In this document: positions 1 through 47,771 of the stretch, one piece after another
How the letters are laid out: every line of letters begins with the position of its first letter
Position numbering within the stretch: position 1 is the first letter of the stretch
From: Cyclobacteriaceae bacterium
GTDB lineage: Bacteria > Bacteroidota > Bacteroidia > Cytophagales > Cyclobacteriaceae
Assembly: GCA_965243485.1 (NCBI GenBank)
Contig: CBDEVP010000001.1
Coordinates: forward strand, 5,121,835 to 5,185,834
Direction of reading: 5' to 3'
Length of the DNA: 64,000 nt
The notes under the pieces: generated by a model
What the model was told of the DNA's origin: nothing
Databases searched by the model: none
The model's input: the letters and a program-made list of their open reading frames with translations, nothing else
Program-made: the position numbers and the translations under genes

Positions 1-731
1 ACACTTCCATCCGCCAACTCAACCAGGGATGTTTCACTCGGGACAGGTGTTGATTCCGTGTTTTCGCAAACAGTCTCGCCCGGCTGCCAGGTCTGGCCGT
101 GATCATCACTATATACGGAAACCACTATTGAAGGCCGATGACCCCGATACTCGGGCCCGAATTCTTTGGCGGTACCATCCGACAACCAAAAAGGAACGAC
201 CAGCCGGCCATTTCTAAGCTGAATACCATGACCCGGTCCGGGAGCCATCACTACCCAGGGATAAATTTCCTTAAATTTTTCTACGGAGGTGGTAATGTCC
301 TTTGGTTCCGAAAAAGACACCCCGTCATCTTCTGATTTCATGTAATAAAGCAAATTGTAGTTGGATTGGAAAAGCATGTGTATATCTCCAGTCTCATAAT
401 CCACAAAGGCCATGGGATTATCTGTTGGAAAAGTACCCATATCCGCTATCACCTGCATGTCCGCCCAGCTGTTTCCTCCGTCCTCACTACGCCTTAAAAC
501 AATATCAATGTCATCCCAGTCTCCACCTTGCCCCTTTCTACCAACGCAATAAGCCAGGATGGTCCCTTTGGAGGTCACGACTATTCCCGGAATCCTGAAA
601 GTGAGGTAGTCTGCTTCACCAGCTTTGAAAAGGTCTTGTTTGTTCAGATATGGCTCCGGATCTACAGCATTATCGCTCTTCGAATTACAGGCTAAAACGT
701 ATACAAGTAAGAGATAAATTAACTTATTCAT
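1..731 (-). CDS. exo-alpha-sialidase (GH33-like) lipoprotein, N-terminal 243 aa only; gene continues past left edge
   Basis: Open at the window edge, so absent from the ORF track. Hand translation of the minus strand from ATG 731-729 gives MNKLIYLLLVYVLACNSKSDN...ADYLTFRIPGIVVTSKGTILAY...RRSEDGGNSW...KSEDDGVSF...YSDDHGQTW. This shows a lipoprotein signal (LAC), the sialidase FRIP motif and Asp-boxes (SxDxGxxW). Plus-strand ORFs 29-598 are antisense to it. Confidence 0.85.
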   Translation of the reverse strand, partial: MNKLIYLLLVYVLACNSKSDNAVDPEPYLNKQDLFKAGEADYLTFRIPGIVVTSKGTILAYCVGRKGQGGDWDDIDIVLRRSEDGGNSWADMQVIADMGTFPTDNPMAFVDYETGDIHMLFQSNYNLLYYMKSEDDGVSFSEPKDITTSVEKFKEIYPWVVMAPGPGHGIQLRNGRLVVPFWLSDGTAKEFGPEYRGHRPSIVVSVYSDDHGQTWQPGETVCENTESTPVPSETSLVELADGS

Positions 732-7995: not shown

Positions 7996-9243
7996 CTACT
8001 TATTTCCAAATACTTTCTCAACTGCCTCAAGGTAGCCATAACCCCACCGCATGTCCGGTTCAAGGTAACTGCCCTCCACCCATTCATTCCATGAGTTGAT
8101 GGTGATCATTGGATATTGATCTGGTCTTTCATCAACATACTGTTTTGCTTTCATCAGAAAAGCCTCAAAACTTTTAGGGTTGGTATTTAATGCAATGCCT
8201 TTCTTCTCAACAAAACGAGGATTATTATCCCATCCGATCGACACGTTCATATAGTATGGTATATTCATGGCACTGTCGATTTTGAGCAGATCCTCCCACG
8301 CCTCCATACCCCACTGCACATAGTCTTTTCCAGGAGGTTTTCCCAGACCCGCATGATGAACCCAAACATAGCTGGTGATACTGTTCGCATTGATAGACTT
8401 AATAGCTTCGTACAAATTGTACTTCTTATTTGGCCGATCTACACCTGAAATATCCTTGACCAGCCAGTTTCTGGAGGTAACCTGGATATGTAACCCGGGA
8501 AAACCTGCTTCTACTACCTTGTCCCTGAAATACTGAATAGCTTCAATCGTAGGCTCCACACCACCTAATCCGTCAAGCAAATTATCAAGATGATAGATAC
8601 TGAAAACCGGTTTCCCGTCAATTTTGAAATATGATGGGTGCTTAAAATACTTTTCAATAAATCTGTCGACCAACTTATCAAATATGGGCCGACTCACTGC
8701 CCCCGGCCAGATCACTACCTGATCGTGAGATCTTTCAATATCCCATGAAGTATTAGCATCATGATTGGCCCACATCAGGTAAAACTTCATTAGATGGTTA
8801 TTCTTTGCCTTAAGAAATCCTTCATTCAATGCCTCCTCCAGATATGGCTGATCCTCAAACCAATACCAATCATAGATAAAGACATCCACCCCATATTTGT
8901 GAGCGGTTTCAATTTTCATCTCCATCACCTTGGGATCATTCTCATAAACATGGCCCCATAAAGGCTGGCGTGGTTGATCGTGTCCTTCCCATTTGGGCAC
9001 AGCATTGTAAATCCGTTCCCATTCCCCGTCATCTCCCCTGTAGAATTCCTTCATTCGAGGTTCAGGATGGTAGGCAGGCCATACATAAGCAGCAATGGTA
9101 TAGGGGTCATCTTTCTCCACTTTGTCCTGTTCAGGACCCTGAGAAACCTGACCTCCTGTGCACCCAATCACCAGTAAAGAAATGATGAATAATTGAAAGA
9201 GCACATTTATGCTTTTACCTTTAGCTAATCTGTCTTTATTCAT
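7996..9243 (-). CDS. WbsX-like (Glyco_tran_WbsX-type TIM barrel) exported lipoprotein, probable glycoside hydrolase
   Basis: 415-aa ORF with a lipoprotein signal (LVIGC). Blocks HDQPRQPLWGHVYENDP, YGVDVFIYDWYWF, LMWANHDANTSW and INSWNEWVEGSYLEPD resemble the WbsX family pattern as I remember it. Confidence 0.55.
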   Translation of the reverse strand: MNKDRLAKGKSINVLFQLFIISLLVIGCTGGQVSQGPEQDKVEKDDPYTIAAYVWPAYHPEPRMKEFYRGDDGEWERIYNAVPKWEGHDQPRQPLWGHVYENDPKVMEMKIETAHKYGVDVFIYDWYWFEDQPYLEEALNEGFLKAKNNHLMKFYLMWANHDANTSWDIERSHDQVVIWPGAVSRPIFDKLVDRFIEKYFKHPSYFKIDGKPVFSIYHLDNLLDGLGGVEPTIEAIQYFRDKVVEAGFPGLHIQVTSRNWLVKDISGVDRPNKKYNLYEAIKSINANSITSYVWVHHAGLGKPPGKDYVQWGMEAWEDLLKIDSAMNIPYYMNVSIGWDNNPRFVEKKGIALNTNPKSFEAFLMKAKQYVDERPDQYPMITINSWNEWVEGSYLEPDMRWGYGYLEAVEKVFGNK

Positions 9244-9438: not shown

Positions 9439-9891
9439 TCACCAGAATTTAACCTTTATGACAATTTTCTTCACTTTTTCAGATTGGTCATAAATCACCC
9501 GGGGCTGATGTGCATCACCCGGGAAATAAACAGCAAACATGCCGGCAGTGAATCTTGTATAATCCGGAGTGGTATCAAATAATTCGTAGTCTTCTTCGCT
9601 CACATAGGCTTTGTATACTTTCAAAGAAGTCTTTGGAACAAATCCCATTGATTCCTTTCCAGCGACCAGGTACTGAACATCGATATATTGCCTGTGAGCT
9701 TCGGGATAGCTTTCGGAAGATGCGATGGTCTGATATGCCTGTACCATGGCGTAGATGTCTTCCCCCTGGATCTCATAACGCCCCACATTGAGTTTGGCAA
9801 GATCATTCTCCATGAGCCATTTCAGAGATCTTTCGATCCTGGGATGGACTCCAAAATATAAGTGAGCATTAGATAGCTGGTCGATAATCAT
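9439..9891 (-). CDS. YhcH/YjgK/YiaL (DUF386) family protein, NanQ-like sialic acid anomerase candidate
   Basis: 150-aa cytoplasmic ORF. The N-terminus MIIDQLSNAHLYFGVHPRIERSLKWL...GRYEIQGEDIYAMVQAYQT is typical of the EbgC/YhcH cupin family, which sits in nan operons in enterobacteria. Confidence 0.7.
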   Translation of the reverse strand: MIIDQLSNAHLYFGVHPRIERSLKWLMENDLAKLNVGRYEIQGEDIYAMVQAYQTIASSESYPEAHRQYIDVQYLVAGKESMGFVPKTSLKVYKAYVSEEDYELFDTTPDYTRFTAGMFAVYFPGDAHQPRVIYDQSEKVKKIVIKVKFW

Positions 9892-11518: not shown

Positions 11519-12934
11519 TTAAACCTGATCCACCCTCGGAAAAATGGGTGGTAAGGCTTCTACATCAATGATACCATCATTATTTCTGAGTTCTTCTCTG
11601 AGCCGGTTGATATCTACTTCAGCAAATGACACCCGATTTTCAACTACCTGAGCGGCAGCCAGTCCGGCGGCCTCACCCATCGCCATGATCGGGGCCATGA
11701 CCCTGACAGGCCCCAGCACCTGACCTTCAACAGACACCGCACGGCCGGGATTGATGAGATTCCTGATGGGCCGCGGGATCATAATCCGGTATGGCATAGG
11801 GGTACTTAATCCTTTCTGGACTTTGTACTTGTAGCCATCTACCTTATCATCAGCAAATGGCTGCACACTTGGCTTATCCGGATCCGGCAGATCCCAGCCA
11901 TACATGCTGAATCCAATGGTATCGTCAAAGGTGTTGTTTTCGGTCAAGTCCCTCACTGTAAGTGTAAAATCTCCGATGATCCTTCGTGTCTCCCTTATCC
12001 CCAACTGGGGTGCAATGGATTTAATCTTCACATTTTCAAATCCGGGAAAGTGCTTCTTAAAGATCTCCATCAATTTGTGGATCTCTTTCCGTCCACGAAC
12101 CATTCCTTTTGAAATAGACGAACCGTCGGTCCCGTCAACTCCTACCAGCCTTGTGGTGTTTATATAAAACTCACCTTTGTCCAGCAGCTGGGTAGCTATA
12201 AAAATGTCATACGGAAAATCCCATTCTCCAGTCTTCTTCAAGGAATTGATTAAATCCCTTAACTTCGGGTCCCTTAATTCCTCAATGTACCGGGTGAATT
12301 TATCCTGATCCACATTGTATACATGAAAAATCAGAGAAGCAGGGGTCATCTTACCATCCTCTCTCCTTCCTTTAATGGTTTCGCAGCCCGACTTGAAGGC
12401 AATATCCGCATTTCCGGTGGCATCAATGACAGCTTTGACCCTGATGGCCTGAAGCCCCGAGCGATTGTAGATGACGACATGGCTGATCTGCTCATCCGCA
12501 ACAATCGCATCCACGGCCTGCGTATGTAGCAAAACATCGACGCCCGCAGCTTTCAGTTTCTCATCCAGGAAAAGGTCCATGTAGAATGGATCAAATGGAA
12601 CGCCATGAATAAACCAGTTATACCAGCCAAAAGGATGATATTTCTCGTTCGGATTAAGTTCTGGTAAGAGTGCAAATCCCTTTTCGGTAGCCTCGGTAGA
12701 CAATTCCTTGAAGATCCCGCCAACAACCCACTCTCCTTCCTGGGTCCGGCCGCCCAGCCACTGAGAGACTAAAGCCGTCACTCCCATGCCACCCAGCTGT
12801 CCAGTACTTTCGACCAGCAAGACTTTCTGACCGGACCTGGCACTGGAAAGCGCCGCCGCACAACCTGCCGGACCTCCCCCACAAACGATGATGTCGTAGT
12901 CTGCATTCTCTTCAATAGTCACTTTATATTCCAT
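11519..12934 (-). CDS. FAD-dependent oxidoreductase (FAD_oxidored-type), cytoplasmic
   Basis: 471 aa with no signal peptide. N-terminal Rossmann dinucleotide motif DIIVCGGGPAGCAAALSSAR. Confidence 0.8.
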   Translation of the reverse strand: MEYKVTIEENADYDIIVCGGGPAGCAAALSSARSGQKVLLVESTGQLGGMGVTALVSQWLGGRTQEGEWVVGGIFKELSTEATEKGFALLPELNPNEKYHPFGWYNWFIHGVPFDPFYMDLFLDEKLKAAGVDVLLHTQAVDAIVADEQISHVVIYNRSGLQAIRVKAVIDATGNADIAFKSGCETIKGRREDGKMTPASLIFHVYNVDQDKFTRYIEELRDPKLRDLINSLKKTGEWDFPYDIFIATQLLDKGEFYINTTRLVGVDGTDGSSISKGMVRGRKEIHKLMEIFKKHFPGFENVKIKSIAPQLGIRETRRIIGDFTLTVRDLTENNTFDDTIGFSMYGWDLPDPDKPSVQPFADDKVDGYKYKVQKGLSTPMPYRIMIPRPIRNLINPGRAVSVEGQVLGPVRVMAPIMAMGEAAGLAAAQVVENRVSFAEVDINRLREELRNNDGIIDVEALPPIFPRVDQV

Positions 12935-12986: not shown

Positions 12987-14780
12987 TCATTTAGGGTTTC
13001 TATTTAGTATTTCCTCAGTAACTACATAGCTCCGTAAAAAAGGCATTTCCGCAGGCTCGCCGCCATTCCCTCCAACTGTATAATCGGCAATGACAATCGT
13101 ACCATCGTCCATCTGCGTAATAGCCGGATATCCGGTGTGCGCAAAATGATCAGCTATCAATTCCAGCGCTACGATCCTGTCTCTTCTGAATTGATCAGGG
13201 TACCCTTTGGATACATCCCATGTCCAATGAATATCATAATCCTCCTTGTTGTCGACCTTTACGCTAAGTGATCTCCAGTGACTTTCAGAGTCCATCTTCC
13301 AGTCATCGTTGGCACCAACTTCGACATCATCAAAATTGAAATTGCTGACATGCCTGTTTCCTATCTGAACATGTCTGTTTTCAAGTCCTTTGATCGAAGA
13401 CCGGAGGCGGGACTTTCCATCAACCAGAATCTCCAACTTGCTGTCTCTCCTGATCACCTCGTATTTATGCCACTTGCTGGCGTCGATATCAAATCCTTTG
13501 TCAGGATCAAGCGTGAGGTATACCCTGTCAGGTTCAATGCTCACCCAGCATCCCGCACCTATCACGCATCCGTTACTTTCCGCACGATCCACTTTTATCT
13601 CGGCATTGATTTGAACTGTGGTCTCCGGCGACTGTGCAGGATAGAATCCCAAAACAAAGGAATTACGAAGTCCATCTCCCGTCCTGATCACCATAGATCC
13701 ATCTTCCAGGGTGCAGGTTTCTTCCCTGTAAACAAATGTTGCAGGCTGGTAACTGAACTTTTCCTCCGGATCGAATAAGAAAGCGTAGGTTCCCGGCGTT
13801 CCCCACCTGTTTCGGTAAACCGCTAATAATTTGCCTGACTGTAGTTTTCGCACGATCGGACGTTGGGCGTAGATCGGCGACAATTGCGGATTTTCCCAGG
13901 ATTGACCACCATCATAACTATAAACAAAGCGGCTGGGCTGCTTAAATGCTCCACCACCCATGCCAACACGCGTGATGGCCAAAAGCTTATCTCCTTCGAG
14001 GTTGACGGTACCGACCTCGCAATCTCCAAAATAAGGGTCATCTGCAATAATAACAGGTGGTTCCCATGTCTTTCCACCGTCTGTTGATCGCACCGATTCA
14101 TTTAGGTAATAGATATCTCCCCACGGCATAGGCGCATCCCAGAGCTTATCAGTTTTCTTTGACCTTGTCCTGGTGTATATCAAATTGCCATTTTCTAATT
14201 CTGTTATGTACCCCGGCTCTCCACCCAAATCATCAATCTTGTGGGGTCCGGTCCACGTTTTTCCATCATCATGGCTCCAAAACAGGTGATTAGACATACC
14301 CCTGTTATCTTGTTGCCATTGGCTCAGCATCGGCCAATCCTGCTGGGACGTGCGGTTTCCCCAATCACAGATGATGACCAGTCTGCCGTCACCCAAAGCC
14401 GTCAGTTGGGGGGCGATCCAGACACCTTTCTGATTCCATACATCACCGTGGGCGATGCTGTGGTGACCGGACCAATTCTTACCATCTGTTGAATAGGTTA
14501 CCATGATATCAGTACTTACTGCAGTATGGAAATCAGATCTTCTATAAGTGGCTACCAATCCGGTTTTTGTGGCAGCAACGCCGGCTACTGAATAGTACCA
14601 GCCGTCTTTACTGAAGGATAACGGATCAGGAACGGTGTCTCTCACCAGATCATACTTGTATTCATCCGGAAGACGATACATCCCCTGCGAGAAGGACGGG
14701 TTACAAATTCCCAACCCAACCAGGAACAGTCCATAAAATAGTAAGTTTCTATTTCCCATTGATTTGAAGTTCATGCTCAA
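12987..14780 (-). CDS. BNR/Asp-box sialidase-like beta-propeller lipoprotein with an inserted jelly-roll-like domain
   Basis: 597 aa with a lipoprotein signal (LGIC). Asp-boxes YSTDGKNW, SHDDGKTW, STDGGKTW and SYDGGQSW; no FRIP motif seen. Alternative start at Met8 (14759). It overlaps the upstream PhyH stop. Confidence 0.7.
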   Translation of the reverse strand: MSMNFKSMGNRNLLFYGLFLVGLGICNPSFSQGMYRLPDEYKYDLVRDTVPDPLSFSKDGWYYSVAGVAATKTGLVATYRRSDFHTAVSTDIMVTYSTDGKNWSGHHSIAHGDVWNQKGVWIAPQLTALGDGRLVIICDWGNRTSQQDWPMLSQWQQDNRGMSNHLFWSHDDGKTWTGPHKIDDLGGEPGYITELENGNLIYTRTRSKKTDKLWDAPMPWGDIYYLNESVRSTDGGKTWEPPVIIADDPYFGDCEVGTVNLEGDKLLAITRVGMGGGAFKQPSRFVYSYDGGQSWENPQLSPIYAQRPIVRKLQSGKLLAVYRNRWGTPGTYAFLFDPEEKFSYQPATFVYREETCTLEDGSMVIRTGDGLRNSFVLGFYPAQSPETTVQINAEIKVDRAESNGCVIGAGCWVSIEPDRVYLTLDPDKGFDIDASKWHKYEVIRRDSKLEILVDGKSRLRSSIKGLENRHVQIGNRHVSNFNFDDVEVGANDDWKMDSESHWRSLSVKVDNKEDYDIHWTWDVSKGYPDQFRRDRIVALELIADHFAHTGYPAITQMDDGTIVIADYTVGGNGGEPAEMPFLRSYVVTEEILNRNPK

Positions 14781-15555
14781 AATTTCTTACTTCTTCAAAC
14801 TGCGTGGAACCAGCCAATAGTTTACCTAACCTTGGCTTCCGATGATTATATACCTCCACTGCATCCGCATCGGCATATCTTAAAAAGAGTATCCTTCTGT
14901 CCCTGGTCTTCGAAAAATTGCCATTGGAGTTGTGTAAGGTCCAGCAATGGAAAATCAGAGTATCACCGGGTTCCATGTGCATGGGAATGGCCTTGCTCTC
15001 ATCCACATCCACATGAATAGCCTCCAGACCTTCTCTATCCCGCTCCTTAATTTGGATCTGACCCTCGAGGTGACTTTTGGGTATTAAATACAAACATCCA
15101 TTGTCGTCATCAACCTTCTCTAATGCGGTGAGCGAAGTGATGGTATTGTAGGGTTCTAATTCTCCATATCCATTATCCTGATGCCAGTCAAATGACTTCG
15201 TATTTCCACGCATCTTGAATGTAAGCTGGGAAGTGGCACCTTTGATATTTGGTCCGATGATTTGTTTTGCAATTTCAAGGATGGGTCCCTGAAAGTAAAA
15301 ATCCCTGACGGCCTGTGACTTTTTATGTATATCAACCAGTAATGAATTTTGCAGCCATGTGCCGTCTTCTCTGAAAGGCCCTTTTTCCTTATTCCACTCT
15401 CTCATCGACTCCTCCAAGAGGACCTCCACCCCTTTTTCGGTCAAAGTTTTACCCAACAACAGGTATCCATTTTCCTGGTAAAACTGCAGCTGCTCATCTG
15501 TCAGTTTTCTATAATTAAACAAGTCCTTATTCATTGGAATGATTTGATTTTTCAA
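14749..15555 (-). CDS. phytanoyl-CoA dioxygenase (PhyH) family Fe(II)/2-oxoglutarate dioxygenase
   Basis: 268 aa, cytoplasmic. HxD facial-triad motif in WHQDNGY, distal His in FHCWTLHNS and an Arg-rich RDRRILF block. The start overlaps the upstream transporter gene by 29 nt. Confidence 0.75.
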   Translation of the reverse strand: MKNQIIPMNKDLFNYRKLTDEQLQFYQENGYLLLGKTLTEKGVEVLLEESMREWNKEKGPFREDGTWLQNSLLVDIHKKSQAVRDFYFQGPILEIAKQIIGPNIKGATSQLTFKMRGNTKSFDWHQDNGYGELEPYNTITSLTALEKVDDDNGCLYLIPKSHLEGQIQIKERDREGLEAIHVDVDESKAIPMHMEPGDTLIFHCWTLHNSNGNFSKTRDRRILFLRYADADAVEVYNHRKPRLGKLLAGSTQFEEVRNFEHELQINGK

Positions 15556-18106
15556 TTGTATAAAATGTTAAACCTTTAAGATCTTTTGTGCCGGGAAAGA
15601 AATAGCTGGCCAGCCAACCAAACAGAAATGCACTGACCATCCCTATGCCGCTATATAAAAAGAAGTTCACCTGCGTATATTCTTTTACCAAGAACAGTAA
15701 CAAAGCACTTAAAACGGCCCCAATGCTGGCTCCTACAGCACTGGCTCTCAGGGTGAAAATGCCAAGTACAAAAATCCCTGTCATAGCTCCGGTAAATAAG
15801 CTGGCCACTTCCAGGATTATGTCCCATACCGAGGTAATTTCTACCTGACTCATTACGAGGGCGATGAGCGTTCCAAGCAAACCGAATCCAATAGTTGTAA
15901 ACTGTGCAATTCTTACTTTCCTGGATTCATCATAATTGTCCAAAGCTTCTCCAAAAAAGTCTCTCATGAGAACGGTGGTGCTGCTATGAATAGAACTGTC
16001 CACACTAGACATAGCTGCTGCAAATATTCCGGCGATAATGACCCCACTTATTCCTACAGGGAGGTTTTGTCCGATAAAATAGGGTACGATGCCATCAGGA
16101 GAAAGCGAGGGATCCAGTGATTGCGGGTTCAGCTTGTAATAAACAAATAAGGCAGTGCCCAGACCAAACACAAGCAGCGCCCAGGGTATGCTGACCAGGG
16201 CATCCGTCCAGAGTGCCTTTGCAGTCTCTTTTTCATTCCTTGTTGTCAGATAACGTTGAACAACCGATTGATCAGTAGCCAGCATACTGATCCTGTTAAA
16301 AATATTTCCAATAATTATCACCCAGAAAACAGCCATAGTAAGGTTCAGGTCGAAGCTTCCCAGACTGAACTTATGATCATTCCAGGCAATCTGTGTAAAG
16401 CGGGCCATACCCCCCTCAATTTGAAAGAGGATGAAAATGATGCAGAGGAAGACCCCTCCAAAAAGCACAAACGCCTGGATCACATCGATCCATATTACGG
16501 CATTCATACCGCCCAGCGCAGTATAGGCAGTGGCCAAAATTCCAATCATTGAAATACATAGCAGCACATCTATCCCTGTAACTGCTGATAGTGCCAATGA
16601 AGGAAGGAAAATAATGGCTCCTAATCTACCCAGCAATTGGAAAAGGAGATAAAGGGATGCTATGAATAACCTGACAAATTGATTAAATCTTTTTTCAAGA
16701 TACTCATAGGCACTTGTGACATTGAGTCTTCGGTAAAAGGGCACAAAAATGTAGACCGTCACAGGTACGGCTACAAACCAGGTAAAGACACCGGCAAAAT
16801 AACTCCAGTCCGTTGCAAAAGATTTGGCCGGAATGGCCATGAAACCAATAGAGCTCACCTGGGCAGCCATCATACTCACTCCCGCAGCCCAGAACGGAAT
16901 TTTTCGTCCACCCAGAAAAAAGTCACCCGTATTCTTGTTTCTCTTAGCAAAATAGGGTCCTAACAATACAATAATGCCTAAGTAAAAGAACAAGGTCAGG
17001 TAATCCAGCCAGTGAAAGTGATTCATTTCACCCTTAGCCAGCCTTCCTGAGTAAATTAGGGGTGTTCTTTCACCAGGTGTATTTTCTCCTCCCGGAATGA
17101 TCAGCCTGCCATCATATTGAACAACCGAAGTTGCAGCCAATCCCTGTGGCATGGTTCCCACTTCGTACCATATGTTGGTAATTGTATTATACGAATAGAT
17201 CTGCATCGGGAATCTATAGGCACTTTTGAGTATTTCCAGTTTGTCGATATCATGGCCGTCAGAACCGCTAAATACCCAGATCTGAGATAACCCGATAGGC
17301 GCTGAAGCAGCAACAAATAGTGGACGTGGTAGAGGTTGTTTCTTTGACCAGTTATTCCGGGTTTTTAACGGGTCATATTCCCAAACTTCGTTCAGATACT
17401 TATCACTGGTTTTTCCCCCGATCAGGTAGAGACATTGATGATCACCATTTGTTTGTGTGATCAGGCTTGCTCCTGCTCTCGAAAATCCCTCCCAGGAGTC
17501 TTCCTTCATCCATCCCGAGGAGATATCGCTGAGATCCAATCTTAGAAACTGGTCTGATGATTGGACCCCCTCAGGATGAACCATATATCCCCCGGCCACA
17601 TAGATCCTTTCCGCCAATAGAGCTGCCGAGAGATGAGAGGTTGGATAGGGAAGCTCGGGTAGTTGCTGGTTGAAAGAGATCTTATTCTCAGCGGTGAATG
17701 TTAGTTTAAACACACTGCTTAGTTTCCCCTGCGCATTCTCACCACCGATCAGTACCAGTCCATCCTTTAAGAGAACAGCCGCTCCATGCGCACATTTTTC
17801 AGGCAGCAGGCCGCGGTATTGCCAGGTGGATGTGTCACTATCTAATGTCAGGGAAAAGACTGAATCAAGATAAATCTTGGTTCCTCCGTCCCATTTATCG
17901 TTGTCAAAATAGCTCCCTCCTGCAACGATCAGCTGATTATCGACAATTCCAATGTATGCGCCACTTAATCCTTTGTCGATTGGCAATGATGGAAAAGCGC
18001 GTTCTTCCCAGGAGATCCAATTTTCTGTCTCTTTGGAAAAACCCTTTACACTTATCAAGCAGAATATTAGAAAAAGACTATTGAAGAATATTAACCGTCC
18101 TGTCAT
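15527..18106 (-). CDS. fusion protein: NanM-like Kelch propeller (cyclically permuted mutarotase type) + sodium:solute symporter (SSS/SLC5)
   Basis: 859 aa. Residues about 1-355 carry a signal/anchor plus Kelch-type repeats (VAGGSYF, LIGGENAQG, VAGGYM, LIGGKTS, FSGSDG, IPGGEN). Residues about 365-859 are a polytopic SSS permease (GDFFLGGRKIPFWAAGVSMMAAQVSSIGFMAIPAKSFATDW). Confidence 0.8.
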   Translation of the reverse strand: MTGRLIFFNSLFLIFCLISVKGFSKETENWISWEERAFPSLPIDKGLSGAYIGIVDNQLIVAGGSYFDNDKWDGGTKIYLDSVFSLTLDSDTSTWQYRGLLPEKCAHGAAVLLKDGLVLIGGENAQGKLSSVFKLTFTAENKISFNQQLPELPYPTSHLSAALLAERIYVAGGYMVHPEGVQSSDQFLRLDLSDISSGWMKEDSWEGFSRAGASLITQTNGDHQCLYLIGGKTSDKYLNEVWEYDPLKTRNNWSKKQPLPRPLFVAASAPIGLSQIWVFSGSDGHDIDKLEILKSAYRFPMQIYSYNTITNIWYEVGTMPQGLAATSVVQYDGRLIIPGGENTPGERTPLIYSGRLAKGEMNHFHWLDYLTLFFYLGIIVLLGPYFAKRNKNTGDFFLGGRKIPFWAAGVSMMAAQVSSIGFMAIPAKSFATDWSYFAGVFTWFVAVPVTVYIFVPFYRRLNVTSAYEYLEKRFNQFVRLFIASLYLLFQLLGRLGAIIFLPSLALSAVTGIDVLLCISMIGILATAYTALGGMNAVIWIDVIQAFVLFGGVFLCIIFILFQIEGGMARFTQIAWNDHKFSLGSFDLNLTMAVFWVIIIGNIFNRISMLATDQSVVQRYLTTRNEKETAKALWTDALVSIPWALLVFGLGTALFVYYKLNPQSLDPSLSPDGIVPYFIGQNLPVGISGVIIAGIFAAAMSSVDSSIHSSTTVLMRDFFGEALDNYDESRKVRIAQFTTIGFGLLGTLIALVMSQVEITSVWDIILEVASLFTGAMTGIFVLGIFTLRASAVGASIGAVLSALLLFLVKEYTQVNFFLYSGIGMVSAFLFGWLASYFFPGTKDLKGLTFYTIEKSNHSNE

Positions 18107-18118
18107 TTCTAAGGAAAA

Positions 18119-19978
18119 TCATTCAACGGGGAGCCAAACATCGAACGTACCCCCAGCCTTACCCGCATCAGCAAATGGGATTAGATTTATTAATCCCTTG
18201 TCCGATTCCACTTCATATTGATACCCTGAAAGGACATTAGGATTTGGAGTAAGTTTCCCATTTTGTAAATCCTCCCTTTTAAAAGAGAAATCTGTTAACT
18301 CCCTGTTGTAATTCGGATCAAAAACCCATGTGATCGGACCTTTTTGAACACTCAAACTCTGAGTTTCTTTAGACCCTTTCAATCGTCTTAAGTTCTTGGG
18401 TACCAGGGTTATCATTCCGTAATCTACCCCTTTCGCATCCATCTTAAATTCAACTTCAAGCTGATCACCCTTTCTCCAGTTTCGCTGAATAATTATAAAA
18501 CCTTCAGAAATCTGTGGGTCCTTTATCAATTTGCTGTTTATCTTTAGTGAGTATGCTTCGCTAAAAGATGGAACTCTCAATTTAAGCATGAAGTCAACTG
18601 GCTCTCTGGGGTCTACAGCAAGCTGAATATTTCCATTTAACGGATACAAGGTTTTTTGATAAATATCTACATTGATGTTATTGATCTTCGTATTCACATG
18701 GGAGTCTTCATAGAAATTAACAACCAGGCTTTTTTGATCCTGTGATGTCCAATAAAAAATCTGCGGGAAATAACTAATCATCATGCTATTCATTGTGTAG
18801 CAACAAAATGAATGACTACCATGTGCCATGCATTTAAAACCATTTGAACCAAAAAAAGAAACGTTGCCAGCTACGGCACACGAGGCTCCTGCATCATGTG
18901 CATTTATAGAATTGTATATAACAGACTCTACAATATTCATATACTTTATATCACCTGTTAACTCGAACATTTTAATACAAAAGATCGCAAATGGACAGAT
19001 ATCGCATAAATAATCAAGCCCAAGACCTTGGTTTTCCTCTACTCGATTGAATTCTACAAATTGATGAAAATTGTTGGAAGCGGAAACCAACATTGTGTCT
19101 GATAAAGTAGTCCTATACAAGTTTATAAATCCAAGAAAATTAAGGAAATCTTCACAAGGTTTACGATGATAATTCTGGCGATTATTTGGATCATTTGTAA
19201 GCAAAAATCTTGGTCCAATCACTGAATAGTACCTTGACTTAATATAATTACAAAACGCCAGGTAATCATCATTTCCTTCCAATTCGTAAAGCCAGGCAAA
19301 TGGATATATGGCGCATGTAGCTCCGGAACTAAACATGGTTGCCGGGTTAGAAGCAAGAATATCTACTTTACCATCATCTGACTGGTAAAAAGTTCCATTT
19401 GGCTTATTTGAATCCCCTCCAAAAATATCCATATAAAGTTCAGCAATCTTCTTTGCCATCTCTAATGATTTTCTGTCATTAAACACTTCGTGATGAGTTA
19501 ATAAACCTATCATCAAGAGATTGTGATTCCATGTATCAAAATGCCAGGTTTGCTTTTTTATGTGGTCAATTTGATTCCAGTTCAGCTCAAAAAATCTGTA
19601 GCCAGGTTTATAAGATCCCAGATAGCCATTGTCAAGCTGTTGCTTCTGTAGTCTGTAAATGCATCTATCAATGAGTTCTTTTAGCTTATTATCTGGTTTG
19701 TATTTATAACTGTTACACGCAGCCACCAGCCATTTCCCAATGTGTTCTCCGCTAAACCAACGAAAGGTATCGATCGGATGCTCATAGTACGATAAGAATT
19801 CCTCCAAATCAGTCATATTCTTGACTCTGGTTTCAAGGTTATTGTCAAAACGCGCTCCCAGAATACCATTAAGCTCAAGTTGACCCTGGACAGGAACTAA
19901 CTCATTTTTTAAAGATTGAGATTTAAGGTTTAGTAGCCAGCATATTGCGATAATAGTAATTATTGATTTTCTGTACAT
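18119..19978 (-). CDS. DUF1680 / GH127-like glycoside hydrolase, secreted
   Basis: 619 aa with a signal peptide. GEHIGKWLVAA block typical of DUF1680 and a vicinal Cys pair in SHSFCCYTMN. The length fits GH127/GH146-type enzymes. Confidence 0.55.
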   Translation of the reverse strand: MYRKSIITIIAICWLLNLKSQSLKNELVPVQGQLELNGILGARFDNNLETRVKNMTDLEEFLSYYEHPIDTFRWFSGEHIGKWLVAACNSYKYKPDNKLKELIDRCIYRLQKQQLDNGYLGSYKPGYRFFELNWNQIDHIKKQTWHFDTWNHNLLMIGLLTHHEVFNDRKSLEMAKKIAELYMDIFGGDSNKPNGTFYQSDDGKVDILASNPATMFSSGATCAIYPFAWLYELEGNDDYLAFCNYIKSRYYSVIGPRFLLTNDPNNRQNYHRKPCEDFLNFLGFINLYRTTLSDTMLVSASNNFHQFVEFNRVEENQGLGLDYLCDICPFAIFCIKMFELTGDIKYMNIVESVIYNSINAHDAGASCAVAGNVSFFGSNGFKCMAHGSHSFCCYTMNSMMISYFPQIFYWTSQDQKSLVVNFYEDSHVNTKINNINVDIYQKTLYPLNGNIQLAVDPREPVDFMLKLRVPSFSEAYSLKINSKLIKDPQISEGFIIIQRNWRKGDQLEVEFKMDAKGVDYGMITLVPKNLRRLKGSKETQSLSVQKGPITWVFDPNYNRELTDFSFKREDLQNGKLTPNPNVLSGYQYEVESDKGLINLIPFADAGKAGGTFDVWLPVE

Positions 19979-20083: not shown

Positions 20084-21634
20084 TTACCAGCTAGGATTTT
20101 GTGTCAATAAACTACCTTTGATTGCCAATTGATTCTGAGGAATCGGAAACAGTTCATGCTTCCCGGCAATTACAGGTTTTCCCTGGGCTTGCAAGGTAGA
20201 AATCAGTCTTCCTGTTCTCTTTAGGTCAAACCAACGGTGACCCTCACCGGCCAGTTCTATGGCCCGCTCATTCAGAATAGCATCGCGTAACTCATCTTTG
20301 CTGAGACCAGTTGTAGCATCCGCCGGAAAGCCTGTCTCAACCCATGGTCCGCCACCATCCCCATCTCTGGCTCGCTTCCTGATCTTGTTCAACTCGGCCA
20401 CCGCACCGGCTTTATCATCCAACTCATTCAAAGCTTCTGCCTTCATTAAGATGACATCGGCGTATCTCAGGATCATGATATTGGCTGAAAAAGCATATCC
20501 TGACCTGCTTGTATTCGCACTTGCATCTACAAACTTCTGAGGCATACTTGGAAGGCCTCTTGGAAACTGAGTGTAGTCGATCGGATTACCAAATTCATCA
20601 ATTCCGCTATAAACGAAAGTCATATCTCTTCTGTAATCCTGTGGGTCGAACATATCAAAAAATTGTTGCTCCGCAACGATACCTCCTGTGCCGGGGGTAG
20701 CCGCTTCTCCCGAGAAATCGGCATTAATTCCGTTCAATTGAATGTCCCAGGTGGTATTTGGCAGGTGGAAGACACCCCAGATTGACAATTCGCCATTCCC
20801 TGTGGTCCCACCTCTTGTGGTGATAAACTCAAAGATTGATTCTGAATTGAAAGCATCTTCCTTGCCAATAGCCTTTTCGAAATCAGCAGTCAAGGCATAC
20901 ACCCCACTGGTGATTACTTCATTGCATGCATCCACACAGGCCTGATAATCCCCCGGCTGAGCGCTTGGAGATCCGGCTCTCGTCAAATACACTTTGGCTA
21001 AAAGGCTGGCTGCCGCTCCGCTGGTTGCTCGCCCGGTTTCATTGGTTGCCGCCATATTATCTTTGGCAAAAATCAAGTCATTGATGATGAATTGATATAC
21101 TTCTGATTCGGGACTCCTTGGAGAGATAGCCTCCGCCGGGCTTGTGACAGATTTATCTCGTATCACAATATCCCCGAACAATCTCATCAGATTAAAATGA
21201 TGAAGTGCCCTGAGAAACCTGGCTTCACCTTCAAATTGAGAAGCAGCTGTTGCTGAAATATCGGCAATGGGCAGATTGTCAATGACTGCATTGGCGGCTG
21301 CAATAGCCTCGTAGATGTGCCGGTATGTAGCGTTTACATTATTATCTCCTGAAGTATAAGTGAACTCATGTAGCGGTCTGTCACCTCCAAGTCCTATAGG
21401 ATCCATTTCGTCGGAAGCAAAATTGACCATATAGAGGAATCTTCTCTTGTAATACTGTATGCTCCCACTTCCCAGGCGATCATAGGCACCAACCAGGGCA
21501 AGAAACATATCGTTTTCAGTCCGGTAAGCCAACTCGGGAGAATTGAAATCAGGTGCGTCTTCTGATAGAAACTCTTCGCATGCGCTGAAATGAAGCGCAA
21601 GCATAATGATGAAAATATATTTTAAAGTCTTCAT
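20084..21634 (-). CDS. SusD/RagB family nutrient-binding outer membrane lipoprotein
   Basis: 516 aa with a lipoprotein signal (HFSAC). Sits immediately downstream of a SusC-like gene and ends in a typical SusD C-terminus (RWFDLKRTGR...QNPSW). Confidence 0.9.
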   Translation of the reverse strand: MKTLKYIFIIMLALHFSACEEFLSEDAPDFNSPELAYRTENDMFLALVGAYDRLGSGSIQYYKRRFLYMVNFASDEMDPIGLGGDRPLHEFTYTSGDNNVNATYRHIYEAIAAANAVIDNLPIADISATAASQFEGEARFLRALHHFNLMRLFGDIVIRDKSVTSPAEAISPRSPESEVYQFIINDLIFAKDNMAATNETGRATSGAAASLLAKVYLTRAGSPSAQPGDYQACVDACNEVITSGVYALTADFEKAIGKEDAFNSESIFEFITTRGGTTGNGELSIWGVFHLPNTTWDIQLNGINADFSGEAATPGTGGIVAEQQFFDMFDPQDYRRDMTFVYSGIDEFGNPIDYTQFPRGLPSMPQKFVDASANTSRSGYAFSANIMILRYADVILMKAEALNELDDKAGAVAELNKIRKRARDGDGGGPWVETGFPADATTGLSKDELRDAILNERAIELAGEGHRWFDLKRTGRLISTLQAQGKPVIAGKHELFPIPQNQLAIKGSLLTQNPSW

Positions 21635-21652: not shown

Positions 21653-24600
21653 TTAGAAACCAAGGTTTACTCCAATCAGATAGGTAGTAGCTGAGGGATA
21701 GGCCGCAAAGTCAATACCCTGTCGACCACCTACAGTGCTGATCAATGCAGGATCCACACCCGAGTAGCTGGTAAAAGTGGCCAGGTTTTGTCCTGACAGA
21801 TAAACTTTAGCTGACGATATCCAGCCTGGAAGATTGGTGAACGTGTAACCGAGCTGGATATTCTGGATCTTGATATAGGATGCATCTTCCACATATGTCG
21901 ACAGCAGCGCATCCTGATAGACAGATCTTGATCCCGCCTGTGGAATGTTACTCTCTGTATTAGAAGGGGTCCACCGGTTGAGCAAATCGACGTGTTTGTT
22001 TGAGCCGGAGTTGACTGAATTAAATATCTCAGCTGCTGCTCCATTGACAGCTTCAAAGCCTTGCATTCCGCGGATGAAAACAGTCAATGACAAGCCCTTA
22101 TATCTAAAGGTGTTGTTAAAACCAAAGGCAAGATCCGGAATTGAATTACCAAGAATCACCCGATCATCCTGATTCCACAATGAATCTCCATTGATATCCA
22201 TGATTTTCAATTCACCTGGTCTGATTCCGGTAGTATCGTAACCTGCGGAAGCTGCCTGATTAATTTCATTTTGAGTATTCCAGACACCATCGGCCCGATA
22301 GCCATAGAAGGATCCAAATGGCTGTCCAACAGAATCTATTTTAGAAATCACTCCACTTATTGCAGTGCTAAAGCCCTGATATTCCCTGGGCGCACTCGGA
22401 CCATTGCTCAAAACCTCATTATTGAGGAAAGTCATGTTGACTTCAGTGGTCCACTCGAAGTCAGATGTCCTGACAGGAGATCCTCCCAGAACCACTTCAA
22501 ATCCATTGCTGCTCTGACTTCCGGTATTGAAGATTTTGTTGGCTTCAACACCATTGGTGTAGTCCAGCGTAATTAGCAATAATTGGTCTTCGGTCGTCTT
22601 GTCAAAATATTCCACAGTACCGTACAACCGGTTATTAAACAATCCGAAATCCACTCCGATATTGCTAGTGATTGTCTCTTCCCAGCCCAGATCTGAATTG
22701 GCCAGCTGAGAGGGAGCTGTACCAGTGTACACCACTCCGCCAAAAATGTATTGGCCTCCGGAACCTACAGCCGGAAAGGAAGAGTATGCGCCAATGGCCT
22801 GGTTACCAGTGACACCATAACCTGCCCTCAATTTCAGGTCACTTACCAGGTCACTGTTTTGTAAAAACGATTCTTCGGAAATTCTCCATCCTGCGGATAC
22901 AGCACCGAAATTTCCCCATTTGTTGTTCTCTCCAAACACGGATGCACCATCTCTCCTAAAGCTTGCGGCAAGCAGATATTTCCCGCCGTATTCGTAGTTT
23001 ACTCTACCCAGAAATCCAGCCAGCGTGCGCTCGCTGTAATCTGAAAATGCATTGGTGCTGGTACTTGCATTTTCAAGTGCATTCAATCTGAAATTATCAT
23101 CCGGAAATCCCAGTGCCGTTGTTCTGGCAGCATATGACTTTGATCCCTGTAAGCTTGAACCGACAACTACCGAAAGGGAATGATCTGCAAAAGTCTTCGC
23201 ATAAGTAAGGGTATATTCATTGATCCATGACTTATTTTCAATCGCCGTCAGGTCTGCACGTCCATTAGTTAAACCTCCCAGATAGCTGGACCTGCCGGGG
23301 AAGTAGTATTGCCCCTGAGCGTTGCTGATATCCAAACCAAGAGAAGCCCTGAAATCCAGACCATCCATCAAATTGGCATCCAGTGCGAAATTTCCCAAAA
23401 AAGTTTTGGTAACCACGTTTGAGGTGATATCCCTTAAAGCCCATACCGGGTTTTCGGGTTTATTGCTTTCGACCCAATCCACGATATAGTCTCCCTCATC
23501 ATCAAACACACTTATTGTGGGTGAGGTTGCATAAGCTTTTTGAATAGGTCCCCTCACATTATCACTTCCTGAATCATCTGTTCCTCCAACATTTTTGCTT
23601 TCGCTGTAGGTCATCCGGGCAGATAACCCGACGCGGTCATTCACATCAAAATCAAGGTTCGACCTGAAGGTATAGCGCTCCAGACCTGTATTCAATACAA
23701 TACCATCCTGATCAAAATAAGAACCCGAGAAGTAATAATTCACACTTTCCGAGCCTCCGGATACCGATATCTGATGGTTTTCCAATAGGGCCTCAGTACC
23801 TGACCTCACAATTTCATCCTGCCAATCTGTACCTGCTCCCATCCCTGAAATCTCAGCATCAGAAAAGCCCGGATTCTGACCTCTGTTGATAAGGTACTCA
23901 TTGAGAAACTCGGCATGTTGCTGGCCATTCATCAGGTCCATCTTATTGTGCAATGACTGCACCCCTACCTGGCTGCTAATGTTCACCTGTGCTTTTTGGG
24001 CGTATTTTCCTTTCTTGGTGGTGATGATAATGACCCCATTGGCACCACGGGCACCGTAAATGGCAGTTGAGGCGGCATCTTTTAAAACCTGTATGGATTC
24101 TATGTCCTGTGGATTTAGCAAAGACAACGGACTGGAAGACGGATTCATTGGCTGATCCTCACCGGGGGCATTGGTCCGTTCGCCACCGCCAACCTGAACA
24201 CCATCAATGACATACAGAGGCTGAGTACCCGCATTGGCAGAGCTGCTACCTCTGATATTGACCTGCATACCCGCACCCGGTGCGCCGGAAGCAGGAGTAA
24301 TATTCAGTCCTGCAACTCTTCCCTGCAGCAATGACTGGACGTTCTGCTCAACCTGTTTGTTGATCTCATCCACATCCACCACTGAAATTGATCCGGTAAC
24401 ATTCTTTTTCTGCTGAGTACCATATCCTACAACCACCACTTCGCTCAAAGCCTGTACATCAGCTTCCAGGGTTACCGGGATCGTAGAACGACTTTTGATT
24501 GCAATTTCCTGATTGAGGTAACCGACAAAACTAATTACGAGGGTAGCATTGTCCGTATCATTCACTTCTAATGAGTAATTGCCATCAACATCAGTGATGG

Positions 24601-24980: not shown

Positions 24981-25718
24981 CTACAGTTCATCGCTGAAAA
25001 TATCATTCCTTTCGCGTTCCTCGTTCTGATACTCGCCATAGATGCGCAGCATCGTCTTTTTACCATGCTCAATATGCAAATCGATGCAAGAACGCAGTAG
25101 ATCTGTATCTTGCCGTTCAATTCCGTCGATCATCTGGGCATGTTCGTCAACCGCAAGCTTTAGCAGATCCCAGCTTCCGAATATGCGTTTCCTTTTATGA
25201 AATCGCGTGATCAGATTAGAATCGTGAACAATCTTCATCAAGCGCTGATTTTTAGCGATCTTTAGAATTGCCAGATGAAACTTTCCGTCCTGCCTGATGA
25301 TCTCAGCCACCAGCTCATCATCATATTTGTTACTATCGGGGTAATTATTGGGATCATTCGCTGCTTTCTGTATCATTTCAGCAAAGTCAGAATTAATACG
25401 TCTCAGTTCTTCAATATCAGTTGTACTTGCCAGCTTACTTGCCTGGATGGCAGCATGGATCTCCAGTGCTTTCCTGATCTCATAAATTTCTATGATTTCA
25501 TCCTCTGACGGATTTGCTACAAAAAACCCAACACCATTCTTTTGCACCATAATGCCCTCTGATACCAGTTGATGAATCGCTTCTCTGATAGGTATAAAAC
25601 TTACTCCTATCTCCTTGGCCAGTGCTCTATTGGATAATTTAGTATCCGGGCTGAGCTCTCCTGCTGCTATTTTCCGCCGCAGATATTTGTATGCCTTTTC
25701 CTTTAATGATTCACTCAT
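24981..25718 (-). CDS. GntR family transcriptional regulator (FadR/FCD subfamily)
   Basis: 245 aa. N-terminal winged HTH (KLSNRALAKEIGVSFIPIREAIHQLVSEGIM) and an all-helical C-terminal domain. Confidence 0.85.
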   Translation of the reverse strand: MSESLKEKAYKYLRRKIAAGELSPDTKLSNRALAKEIGVSFIPIREAIHQLVSEGIMVQKNGVGFFVANPSEDEIIEIYEIRKALEIHAAIQASKLASTTDIEELRRINSDFAEMIQKAANDPNNYPDSNKYDDELVAEIIRQDGKFHLAILKIAKNQRLMKIVHDSNLITRFHKRKRIFGSWDLLKLAVDEHAQMIDGIERQDTDLLRSCIDLHIEHGKKTMLRIYGEYQNEERERNDIFSDEL

Positions 25719-27647: not shown

Positions 27648-27674
27648 ATAAAACCTGTCATATTTATTTGCAGG

Positions 27675-28454: not shown

Positions 28455-28467
28455 GACATCTATAAAA

Positions 28468-46832: not shown

Positions 46833-47771
46833 TTATAGTTCAATGAAAAATTCCGGAATCATCTCCTTTGCTTTGGGCCTTAATCTCCCGATCAAATCAG
46901 TACTTAAGGACCGGTAAGGCCACCTGAGTCTACAGCCGATATCCGCCCACCCACCAATAGCCGCCAGCATTTTATCAACCGCCTGATTGGAATACTTTTC
47001 ACCAGCAATCAACGGAGCAATGAATCCACTTAAGAATTGATTGATCCTGCTCTCCAGCTCCAGGGCTTTCTCCAGATCTATCAAAATTTGATCGGCCCAA
47101 AGCTGGGCAGCTTTGGGATTGAGACAAGCCATGTTGGAGTAGGCCCCATGACTAACTTTCAACTTGTGGCCGGTGGCAATTTTATGACCGGGTATGAAAA
47201 CAGAGATCTTCTCAGCGACTTTTGTCATTTCCTGATACCAGGAATCATCTCCATCCGCTACTTTAAGGCCCACAAGATGGGGTACATCATATGTTAATTG
47301 AAATAGCTCTGCTGGTGTCAGTCGCTTCTTTGCATGAGGGGGATTATATAGAACGATACCAATCTCACCTGCTGATTCACTCATCTTATTCAAAAAAGTC
47401 ACACATTCCTGGTACGTGGGAAAAAACCAGTCTGGCAAAATCACCTGAACGGCACCTGGTTTCAGGTCGACAGACCTTTTTAGCCGTTCCAAAGAAATGA
47501 CAGGGCTCATGTGACTGACCCCGATCTGAAACGGAATCCCGGCACTGTTGCACTTCTCCGCCAGGAGTATCCCTACCTGATCAAATTCGTCTTCAGTGAG
47601 ATTATAAAATTCTCCGGCAGTACCATTGCAATACATGCCATCAGGGTTGATGGAAATGAAAGCATCTATCTCGGCACTTAGCCTTGAAAAATCGATGGTT
47701 TCATCCTGGTTGATTGGTAATAACACCGTACACCAGTTCCCTTTTATGTCGCCAGCTGACAAAGTCCTCAT
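46833..47771 (-). CDS. DapA/NanA superfamily class I aldolase or dehydratase paralog
   Basis: 312 aa. NGTAGEFYNLTEDEF is a variant of the GxTGE carboxylate-binding motif. The candidate Schiff-base Lys lies in LVGLKVADGD. Divergent from the AraC gene. Confidence 0.65.
   Translation of the reverse strand: MRTLSAGDIKGNWCTVLLPINQDETIDFSRLSAEIDAFISINPDGMYCNGTAGEFYNLTEDEFDQVGILLAEKCNSAGIPFQIGVSHMSPVISLERLKRSVDLKPGAVQVILPDWFFPTYQECVTFLNKMSESAGEIGIVLYNPPHAKKRLTPAELFQLTYDVPHLVGLKVADGDDSWYQEMTKVAEKISVFIPGHKIATGHKLKVSHGAYSNMACLNPKAAQLWADQILIDLEKALELESRINQFLSGFIAPLIAGEKYSNQAVDKMLAAIGGWADIGCRLRWPYRSLSTDLIGRLRPKAKEMIPEFFIEL

Follow-up and report, generated by a model that had tools for sequence, protein, structure and literature searches.

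Why should a bacterial operon for the uptake of sialic-acid-type sugars encode an oxygenase? Sialic and other nonulosonic acids occur widely on the surfaces of animals, algae, and microbes, and their described breakdown uses a lyase, an epimerase, and a kinase, with an esterase, a mutarotase, an anomerase, and NanOx/NanY as accessory functions. The described pathways contain no oxygenase (PMC8461474, PMC10017367). The question is raised by a 64,000-nucleotide stretch of a Cyclobacteriaceae genome (GenBank assembly GCA_965243485.1, contig CBDEVP010000001.1, positions 5,121,835 to 5,185,834; hereafter, the window), in which a gene of the PhyH family, here called PhyH1, lies between a transporter gene and a BNR propeller gene. 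An earlier reading of the same DNA (the original prediction) had drawn attention to this gene and had stated, in agreement with the published pathways, that an oxygenase is not needed in canonical sialic acid catabolism. Sequence comparison and structure prediction confirm PhyH1 as a genuine PhyH-family Fe(II)/2-oxoglutarate (2OG) dioxygenase. Its gene context suggests that it is probably a cytoplasmic accessory “tailoring” oxygenase in a locus for the catabolism of sialic-acid-type (nonulosonic or ulosonic) acids, and the locus points to an undescribed O2-dependent step in the breakdown of sialic-acid-like sugars.

The PhyH1 gene and its product

The likeliest coding sequence, supported by the PF05721 match, orthologue lengths, invariant residues, and an AlphaFold2 (AF2) model, is as follows.

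14749..15534, minus strand: PhyH1, Fe(II)/2OG dioxygenase, 261 amino acids (aa).

The longest open reading frame (ORF) of PhyH1, 14749-15555 on the minus strand, opens at TTG 15555. We prefer ATG 15534 as the likely start because the source's own gene call (261 aa) begins there and because homologues, of 256 to 290 aa, are alignable from the methionine of this ATG (120/120 among the matches listed); the orthologues measure 256 to 261 aa. The 29-nucleotide (nt) overlap with the upstream NanM::SSS transporter gene that the original prediction had described is an artefact of the longest ORF: between ATG 15534 and the transporter stop (TAA, 15529-15527), the overlap is 8 nt, ATGAATAA. A stop/start overlap of 8 nt is a common layout for coupled translation. 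The stop of PhyH1 (TAG, 14751-14749) lies within the BNR ORF, as had also been noted. Alignment with the orthologue in a syntenic locus (L002, below) makes ATG 14759 the most likely BNR start, with an overlap of 11 nt and a protein whose predicted signal peptide opens with MGNRNLLFYGLFLV; a start at TTG 14780 would instead give 32 nt. The operon-like packing of PhyH1 with transporter and BNR genes therefore stands. In L002, the three genes are spaced ∼130 to 150 nt apart and do not overlap; their adjacency is conserved, and the overlaps themselves are particular to this genome. No signal peptide could be read from the PhyH1 N-terminal sequence, which is consistent with the cytoplasmic protein originally proposed.

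PhyH1 matches PF05721 (PhyH) at an E value of 2.7e-26, with 93.6 bits against a cutoff of 22 and across profile positions 1 to 212 of 213. PhyH was the sole Pfam family found, and TauD (PF02668) gave no match at an E value of ≤0.01. In the numbering of the 261-aa protein, the WHQDNGY motif supplies H118 and D120, TLHNS supplies H201, and the third residue of RDRR is R213. The best solved structure by sequence is that of human PhyH (2A1X; E = 1.8e-12), in which H118, D120, and H201 pair with H175, D177, and H264, and R213 pairs with the 2OG-binding R275. The HxD motif, distal histidine, and RDRR block that the original prediction had recognized are thus catalytic, and the facial triad is kept on proper alignment. 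H118, D120, H201, K107, R211, R213, and R214 are invariant across 30 orthologues, as are the blocks QLTFKM, WHQDNGYG, RDRRILF.RYADA.A.E.YN, and PRLG. All of these residues except R214 were also found to be invariant when a second PhyH family was added (55-sequence alignment). Judged from the sequence, the catalytic apparatus is intact and includes basic residues, R213 and K107, predicted to hold the C5 carboxylate of 2OG.

An AF2 model calculated from the 55-sequence alignment of the two PhyH families reached a predicted local distance difference test (pLDDT) score of 90.3 and a predicted template modeling (pTM) score of 0.89; a single-sequence model gave a pLDDT of 33. The modeled fold is the double-stranded beta-helix of PhyH type. 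The leading Foldseek matches in the PDB (50 listed) were almost all PhyH-type oxygenases, at a probability of 1.00 and 16 to 23% identity, the top ones having E values of ∼1e-16 to 1e-13 and template modeling (TM) scores of 0.65 to 0.76. They included SnoK (E = 1.3e-16), MysH, proline hydroxylase H11, SyrB2, GriE (TM 0.75), human PhyH, SnoN, ThoJ, EctD, and EvdO1. The PhyH fold expected by the original prediction is therefore borne out by both profile and model. No function can be transferred to PhyH1 from these proteins, because no characterized enzyme is close enough. Likewise, NCBIfam equivalogs scored far below their cutoffs (55.6 versus 500, 50.6 versus 226.3, and 34.5 versus 336.5); these weak matches were to a methylphosphonate hydroxylase, a halogenase, and, with the last of the scores, ectoine hydroxylase.

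Gene neighborhoods of PhyH1 relatives

Do relatives of PhyH1 keep the same company? Six named orthologue neighborhoods (loci are designated by L numbers) were annotated with Pfam.

L002, Cytophagales metagenome-assembled genome (MAG): SusC, SusD, TIM barrel, GntR, SiaF, PhyH1, BNR (587 aa), and FAD-dependent oxidoreductase (FADox), repeating the window.
L003, Membranihabitans: sialidase, PhyH1, SusCD, HpcH aldolase, and sulfatases.
L004, Pedobacter, soil: sialidase, SusC, SusD, PhyH1, and GH43.
L013, Kriegella: SusCD, three BNR genes, two DHDPS genes, two GntR genes, PhyH1, SiaF, and an orthologue of a second PhyH gene of the window (PhyH2).
L014, Mucilaginibacter: GntR, sialidase, SusC, SusD, PhyH1, DHDPS, DHDPS, NanM, and MFS.
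L015, Bacteroidota-type MAG (source label Williamsia sp.): GntR, SusCD, NanM, 2-hydroxyacid dehydrogenase, PhyH1, BNR, and enolase-type dehydratase.

All six are of the sialic-acid type. The sialidases adjoining PhyH1 in L003, L004, L013, and L014 have FRIP/YRIP motifs, four or five Asp-boxes, and signal peptides, and a SASA esterase and another BNR gene lie near the L015 cluster.

A metagenome scan with the orthologue alignment added 80 loci, where a single-protein contig scan had given one. The ORFs of loci with at least 4 kb of flanking sequence were scored by BLASTP against a labeled reference set, and markers within 10 kb were counted. A sialic-pathway marker was present in 17 of 19 loci with close orthologues (≥57% identity; L044, at 58%, is tallied here), in 2 of 18 with relatives of 49 to 56% identity, and in 1 of 17 control loci with unrelated PhyH genes (≤40% identity). 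Among the pathway genes of the close loci are those for FRIP sialidases, SusCD, NanM, transporters of the MFS or SiaF type, GntR, and two lyases of the DHDPS type. L043 and L044 have the order GntR, TRAP (DctP), NanA, NanE, ROK (NanK), and PhyH1, that is, a proteobacterial-type nan operon, and three transporter types are thus found beside PhyH1 (SusCD with MFS, SiaF, and TRAP). On a maximum-likelihood tree, sialic context requires 4 changes, compared to a mean of 12.8 in shuffles, and the PhyH1 of the window belongs to a seven-member clade (support, 99/91) in which every locus is of the sialic type. The linkage to transporter and sialidase genes that the original prediction had named as a test is therefore present in related genomes. 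The relatives of 49 to 56% identity occur in planctomycete-type loci with the order PhyH1, DUF3472, PSCyt2/PSD1, DUF1501, and sulfatase.

Sulfatases are found near some marine orthologues (L003, L011, L034, L041, L049, and L053), and no sulfatase or sulfur genes were found in the soil-type loci L004, L012, L014, L028, and L037. A role of PhyH1 as a sulfatase maturase was considered and rejected, since the soil loci carry PhyH1 without a sulfatase.

In L047 (10836-12917), one relative is flanked by an SSS transporter gene and an SDR gene. Downstream of it come a single protein that combines a match to the neutral ceramidase N-terminal domain (E = 4.9e-9, weak) with a Laminin_G_3 domain, and an esterase, an arrangement that might hint at the breakdown of glycolipids (sialoglycosphingolipids).

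The operon and partner genes of the window

PhyH1 is the fifth of seven genes in a minus-strand operon with the order SusC, SusD, GH127, SiaF, PhyH1, BNR, and FADox. A consensus scan for internal promoters and terminators in the operon gave no signal above shuffled background. The operon and the two genes upstream of it are listed below.

25732-26631, minus strand: xylose-isomerase-like TIM barrel, upstream of the operon (Pfam; orthologue in L002).
24981-25718, minus strand: GntR/FCD regulator, upstream of the operon (Pfam).
21653-24772, minus strand: SusC, heading the operon (the L002 counterparts of this gene and the next are annotated as Plug/TonB barrel and SusD).
20084-21634, minus strand: SusD (SusC/SusD of the syntenic L002 are 61 to 67% identical).
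18119..19978, minus strand: GH127-like glycoside hydrolase (Pfam GH127 catalytic and middle domains).
15527..18106, minus strand: SiaF-type transporter, a periplasmic NanM-like Kelch mutarotase joined to an SSS permease (Pfam SSF and NANM/Kelch; NCBIfam sss and mutarotase).
12987..14759 (ORF to 14780), minus strand: exported divergent BNR/Asp-box propeller of ∼590 aa (Pfam BNR_2; three Asp-boxes and a signal peptide).
11519..12934, minus strand: PF12831 FADox, the last gene of the operon (Pfam E = 1.6e-93).

The fusion of NanM and SSS defines the SiaF transporter family (PMC8461474), and by its predicted architecture a recognized sialic acid transporter family is present at the locus. GntR/FCD regulators occur in 10 of the 19 close-orthologue loci. 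The BNR propeller has only faint matches to solved sialidases, and its orthologues adjoin PhyH1 in L001, L002, and L025. In L002, the orthologues of FADox (73% identity) and BNR (69%) occupy the same places; as a pair, they accompany PhyH1 in L002 and, more loosely, in L001. The GH127-like gene has a weak match, below the cutoff, to the NCBIfam aceric acid hydrolase.

Further genes of interest lie outside the operon.

3..731, minus strand: N-terminal part of a GH33-type sialidase whose gene leaves the window (Pfam BNR_2/BNR_3).
9439..9891, minus strand: YhcH/NanQ-like sialic acid anomerase homologue (Pfam DUF386, E = 1.7e-42).
27675-28454, plus strand: PhyH2 (Pfam).
28468-29919, plus strand: S1 sulfatase directly after PhyH2 (Pfam).
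46833..47771, minus strand: DHDPS_A, a divergent class I aldolase of the NAL family (Pfam DHDPS, E = 3.5e-11).
53190-55787, plus strand: second SiaF transporter (Pfam and NCBIfam).
55807-56742, plus strand: DHDPS_B, NanA-like lyase (Pfam and NCBIfam).

The visible part of the sialidase has a signal peptide, FRIP at residue 45, and two Asp-boxes. The anomerase homologue scores 125 bits against the NCBIfam N-acetylneuraminate anomerase, below the cutoff of 160. At least six S1 sulfatases are encoded in the window.

DHDPS_A retains the GTAGE motif, the catalytic Tyr142, and the Schiff-base Lys170. Its gene directly follows PhyH1 in L012, L014, L028, and L037 and is close to it in L013, L019, L020, L023, and L031. 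In a sample of 400 evenly chosen Bacteroidota genomes, together with that of the window, DHDPS_A was found in four of four genomes with PhyH1 and in 2 of ∼397 others; DHDPS_A is coinherited with PhyH1. From its sequence, it could be a lyase for Kdn-type or modified sialic acids. DHDPS_B usually accompanies it, with orthologues in 10 of the 19 close loci; its best matches are NanA models (138 bits; cutoff, 281), and the Schiff-base lysine and the tyrosine are present.

PhyH2 shares 32% identity with PhyH1 over 121 residues. Orthologues of PhyH2 lie beside PhyH1 in L013, L021, L022, L057, and L061, and in Arenibacter (L016), one is found in a complete sialic locus that also has NanA, SASA esterases, sialidases, sulfatases, AGE, and SiaF. 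In the window (26760-29919), an AraC gene is oriented divergently from PhyH2, which is followed by the S1 sulfatase. At L016:10001-12530, the PhyH2 orthologue is followed by an aldo-keto reductase (AKR) and a creatininase-family amidohydrolase. The same two genes follow a PhyH gene, not assigned to a PhyH family, in the metagenomic loci L071, L076, L077, and L078; the arrangement suggests a conserved three-gene module of its own.

Oxidoreductase genes recur near PhyH1: 2-Hacid_dh in L001, L015, L020, and L025, SDR in L047, L056, and L057, and AKR in L023, L033, L035, and L050. An enolase-superfamily acid-sugar dehydratase (MR_MLE) also recurs beside it. The MR_MLE, 2-Hacid_dh, DHDPS_A, and DHDPS_B genes all score below the NCBIfam equivalog cutoffs, and the identity of the sugar therefore cannot be deduced from the neighbors. 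AGE, NanE, and NanK were neither annotated nor detected in the annotated parts of the window or in the Bacteroidota-type PhyH1 loci examined. AGE-family genes are present elsewhere in the genome of the window, and the presence or absence of this family does not discriminate among PhyH1 genomes.

Proposed role and alternatives

What might such an enzyme do? In the pathway that we propose, exported sialidase-like BNR enzymes would free the sugar acid from glycans, and SusCD would carry it over the outer membrane. The periplasmic NanM domain of SiaF would mutarotate it before import by the SSS domain. In the cytoplasm, PhyH1, with O2 and 2OG, would introduce a hydroxyl group at a C-H position of the sugar acid, or of the compound formed directly from it, by which a feature intractable to hydrolases and NanA-type lyases would be removed or converted. 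The two DHDPS-family lyases would then split the product into pyruvate and an aldose. The choice of substrate, the site of attack, and the placement of the step before the lyase are inferences.

Catabolic 2OG oxygenases generally serve bonds that are beyond hydrolases, such as ethers, sulfate esters, and inert C-H bonds (TfdA, AtsK, and TauD). For this reason, our leading guess at the chemistry is the hydroxylation-triggered loss of a stable ether substituent, e.g., O-methyl. Since reductases recur nearby and SnoN offers a precedent, the next guess is oxidation at a ring carbon, with the resulting ketone then reset by a neighboring reductase. Oxidative N-deacylation would be the third guess, and AtsK-like desulfation is placed last because the soil loci lack sulfatases and PhyH1 is not of the TauD family. 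Among the substituents named by the original prediction, O-demethylation and N-acyl chemistry are thus possible in our analysis, and AtsK-type sulfate-ester cleavage appears to be the least likely role for the family as a whole.

Several points weigh against a tailoring role in sialic acid catabolism. The marker reference set was partly drawn from the scored loci, so that the counts of 17/19 and 1/17 tilt slightly toward the result, and related loci are not independent samples. The half of the clade at 49 to 56% identity is mostly without sialic markers, and in one locus of a close orthologue (L029), PhyH1 has a tRNA synthetase gene on one side and an SDR epimerase gene on the other. No formaldehyde-handling gene that would back O-demethylation was seen. 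The nearest named homologue has only ∼23% identity. The true substrate could also be the aldose product or another imported compound rather than the sugar acid.

The recurrence of an oxidoreductase (2-Hacid_dh, SDR, or AKR) beside or near PhyH1 in many loci would suit an enzyme that makes a ketone at a carbinol carbon, after which a reductase, in the window perhaps FADox, resets the opposite stereochemistry to give a net epimerization to an acid that the lyase accepts. The fold matches are in keeping with such editing, as they include SnoN, a 2OG-dependent sugar epimerase, and SnoK and EvdO1, which activate C-H bonds of sugars. The minimal soil clusters (L012, L014, L028, and L037) have no reductase, and 2OG spent on epimerization is costly in catabolism; we regard this explanation as unlikely. 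The missing AGE, NanE, and NanK genes in the Bacteroidota-type loci, which yet have two lyases, with DHDPS_A coinherited, bring up another: an oxidative loss of the N-acyl group at C5 (or C7), by way of a carbinolamide, to give a keto acid, which would be reduced to a Kdn-type acid or cut by DHDPS_A, skipping NanE/NanK or AGE. A Kdn-specific aldolase exists in Sphingobacterium, as cited in PMC10017367, and the reductases near PhyH1 would fit. We found no precedent for such chemistry on sugars and saw no amidase for the released acetamide; PhyH1 co-occurs with NanE and NanK in L043 and L044, and the AGE-family genes elsewhere in the genome also argue against a bypass. N-acyl removal is thus highly improbable. 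In a broader form, PhyH1 and DHDPS_A, often with a second PhyH and a reductase, would constitute an O2-dependent nonulosonic acid branch bypassing NanE/NanK or AGE, one version of which is the removal of a C5 N-acyl or ether group to give a Kdn-type keto-deoxy acid for DHDPS_A; this, too, we consider quite unlikely.

The sulfatases bear on a third possibility, in which PhyH1 hydroxylates the sulfate-bearing carbon of an imported sulfated sialic acid in the manner of AtsK, releasing sulfate and leaving a carbonyl. The abundance of S1 sulfatases in the window, one of them directly after PhyH2, and their presence near the marine orthologues are consistent with this, and a bacterial sulfatase that acts on sulfated sialic acid has yet to be reported (PMC10017367). 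AtsK belongs to the TauD family, to which PhyH1 has no match at the threshold given above, and the soil loci have neither a sulfatase nor an expected source of sulfated sialic acid. The soil and marine members of the clade are 59 to 72% identical, which argues for one common substrate, and desulfation is the least probable of the explanations weighed here. It is also very unlikely that PhyH1 is unrelated to the sugar acid, being instead a generalist that hydroxylates small molecules (an amino acid, osmolyte, phosphonate, or lipid) and that happens to accompany these loci. The best structural matches do include GriE, proline hydroxylase H11, and EctD, the weak NCBIfam matches are to methylphosphonate and ectoine hydroxylases, and about half of the wider clade is outside sialic loci, with L029 in a housekeeping context. 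The NCBIfam scores are, however, far below cutoff (e.g., 55.6 versus 500), the sialic linkage recurs in several clades and with three transporter types, and PhyH1 lies inside an operon with overlapping stop and start codons. A cytoplasmic oxygenase that tailors the imported sugar acid therefore remains our preferred explanation.

Comparison with known systems

Human PHYH/PAHX (2A1X) shares the beta-helix fold with PhyH1 (Foldseek E = 7e-15; TM, ∼0.7), and the H-x-D...H triad and the 2OG-binding Arg/Lys align. Identity is ∼22%, and the substrate of the peroxisomal PAHX is a branched-lipid coenzyme A (CoA) thioester; PhyH1, in contrast, lies in a bacterial sugar-acid uptake operon with no CoA-handling genes among the annotated neighbors. 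SnoK and SnoN of nogalamycin and EvdO1 and EvdO2 of everninomicin biosynthesis are related to PhyH1 (SnoK at E = 1.3e-16 by fold and 2.4e-9 by sequence; EvdO1 at 1.8e-9) and show that the PhyH fold can oxidize, epimerize, or bridge carbohydrate carbons. They are biosynthetic enzymes of Actinobacteria that act on large antibiotic glycosides, at 18 to 23% identity, whereas the locus of PhyH1 is catabolic and its substrate is probably a free acidic monosaccharide. The highest TM scores (0.70 to 0.76) belong to GriE (leucine), proline hydroxylase H11, and EctD (ectoine), which are also of ∼260 aa and have small polar carboxylate substrates, but identity is ∼19 to 20%, and no amino acid or ectoine genes are near PhyH1. 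AtsK offers an example of how a 2OG oxygenase in catabolism can strip off a substituent, namely, by hydroxylation at the carbon to which it is attached. AtsK and TauD have the same cofactor chemistry as PhyH1 but belong to another Pfam family, PF02668, and orthologues of PhyH1 occur in sulfatase-free soil loci.

The closest likeness of the locus as a whole is to canonical nan clusters, with which it shares FRIP sialidase, SusCD-type uptake, NanM, SiaF/MFS/TRAP transporters, GntR/FCD regulators, NanA-type lyase, and YhcH anomerase (PMC8461474, PMC10017367). Those clusters, as described, have no oxygenase; in the loci studied here, PhyH is a conserved member, in many cases with a second PhyH gene and a divergent lyase. 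A literature search for an oxygenase in sialic-type loci (PhyH or 2OG oxygenase with sialidase, polysaccharide utilization, nanA, or Kdn) found no description. The enzyme class is ordinary; what appears undescribed is a conserved PhyH clade in nan-type loci, often with a second PhyH and a coinherited divergent lyase.

That an Fe/2OG oxygenase is conserved in operons of both the Bacteroidota and the proteobacterial type implies that the sugar has some common natural form that must be oxidized before use. Candidates are O-methylated, unusually N-acylated, stereo-variant, and sulfated forms. An O2-dependent branch, if it exists, would give sialic acid breakdown its first oxygenase step and might allow bacteria of soil and sea to consume sialic-like sugars, modified or bacterial, that have no known catabolic pathway. 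If the substrate were identified, a missing part of glycan turnover on land and in the sea would be supplied, a family with several hundred detectable homologues (863 at an E value of ≤0.001) would gain a function, and an enzyme useful in the editing of sialic acids might be obtained.

Distribution of the clade and additional observations

How widespread is PhyH1? A search of 1.84 billion representatives clustered at 50% identity found 3,681 PhyH relatives at an E value of ≤0.001 but only 23 clusters at ≤1e-30. Beyond the latter value, scores fall to generic PhyH proteins of ∼30% identity, and PhyH1 therefore forms a discrete clade. Named carriers are Cytophagales, Cyclobacteriaceae, Saprospiraceae (Membranihabitans), Pedobacter, Mucilaginibacter, Kriegella, and Paracoccaceae. 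Among the 400 sampled Bacteroidota genomes, the clade was found in three (E ≤ 1e-60) besides the genome of the window. A genome of the same genus (G215) lacks PhyH1, the 590-aa BNR protein, and PhyH2, and keeps a DHDPS_A homologue of 56% identity. The SusC-to-FADox operon is therefore an accessory trait specific to the species and was probably acquired horizontally.

Two proteins encoded on marine metagenome contigs (P0125 and P0138; 711 to 795 aa) have an N-terminal PhyH1-like domain of ∼51% identity. No informative partner domain was found in them; the extra ∼550 residues have no Pfam match and are low-complexity, GC-rich, and eukaryote-like. They may be algal homologues or gene-model fusions.

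A WbsX-family (“glycosyltransferase”) protein at 7996-9243 on the minus strand of the window has weak GH71/GH99-like matches and is located amid GH78-like and YhcH catabolic genes; it may actually be a glycoside hydrolase. In four planctomycete-type loci (L042, L049, L052, and L053), PhyH1 relatives of 52 to 56% identity are followed by DUF3472, PSCyt2/PSD1 (DUF1549/DUF1553), DUF1501, and sulfatases. At 60550-63957, a DUF1501 gene abuts that of a PSCyt1-domain membrane protein at the end of the window.

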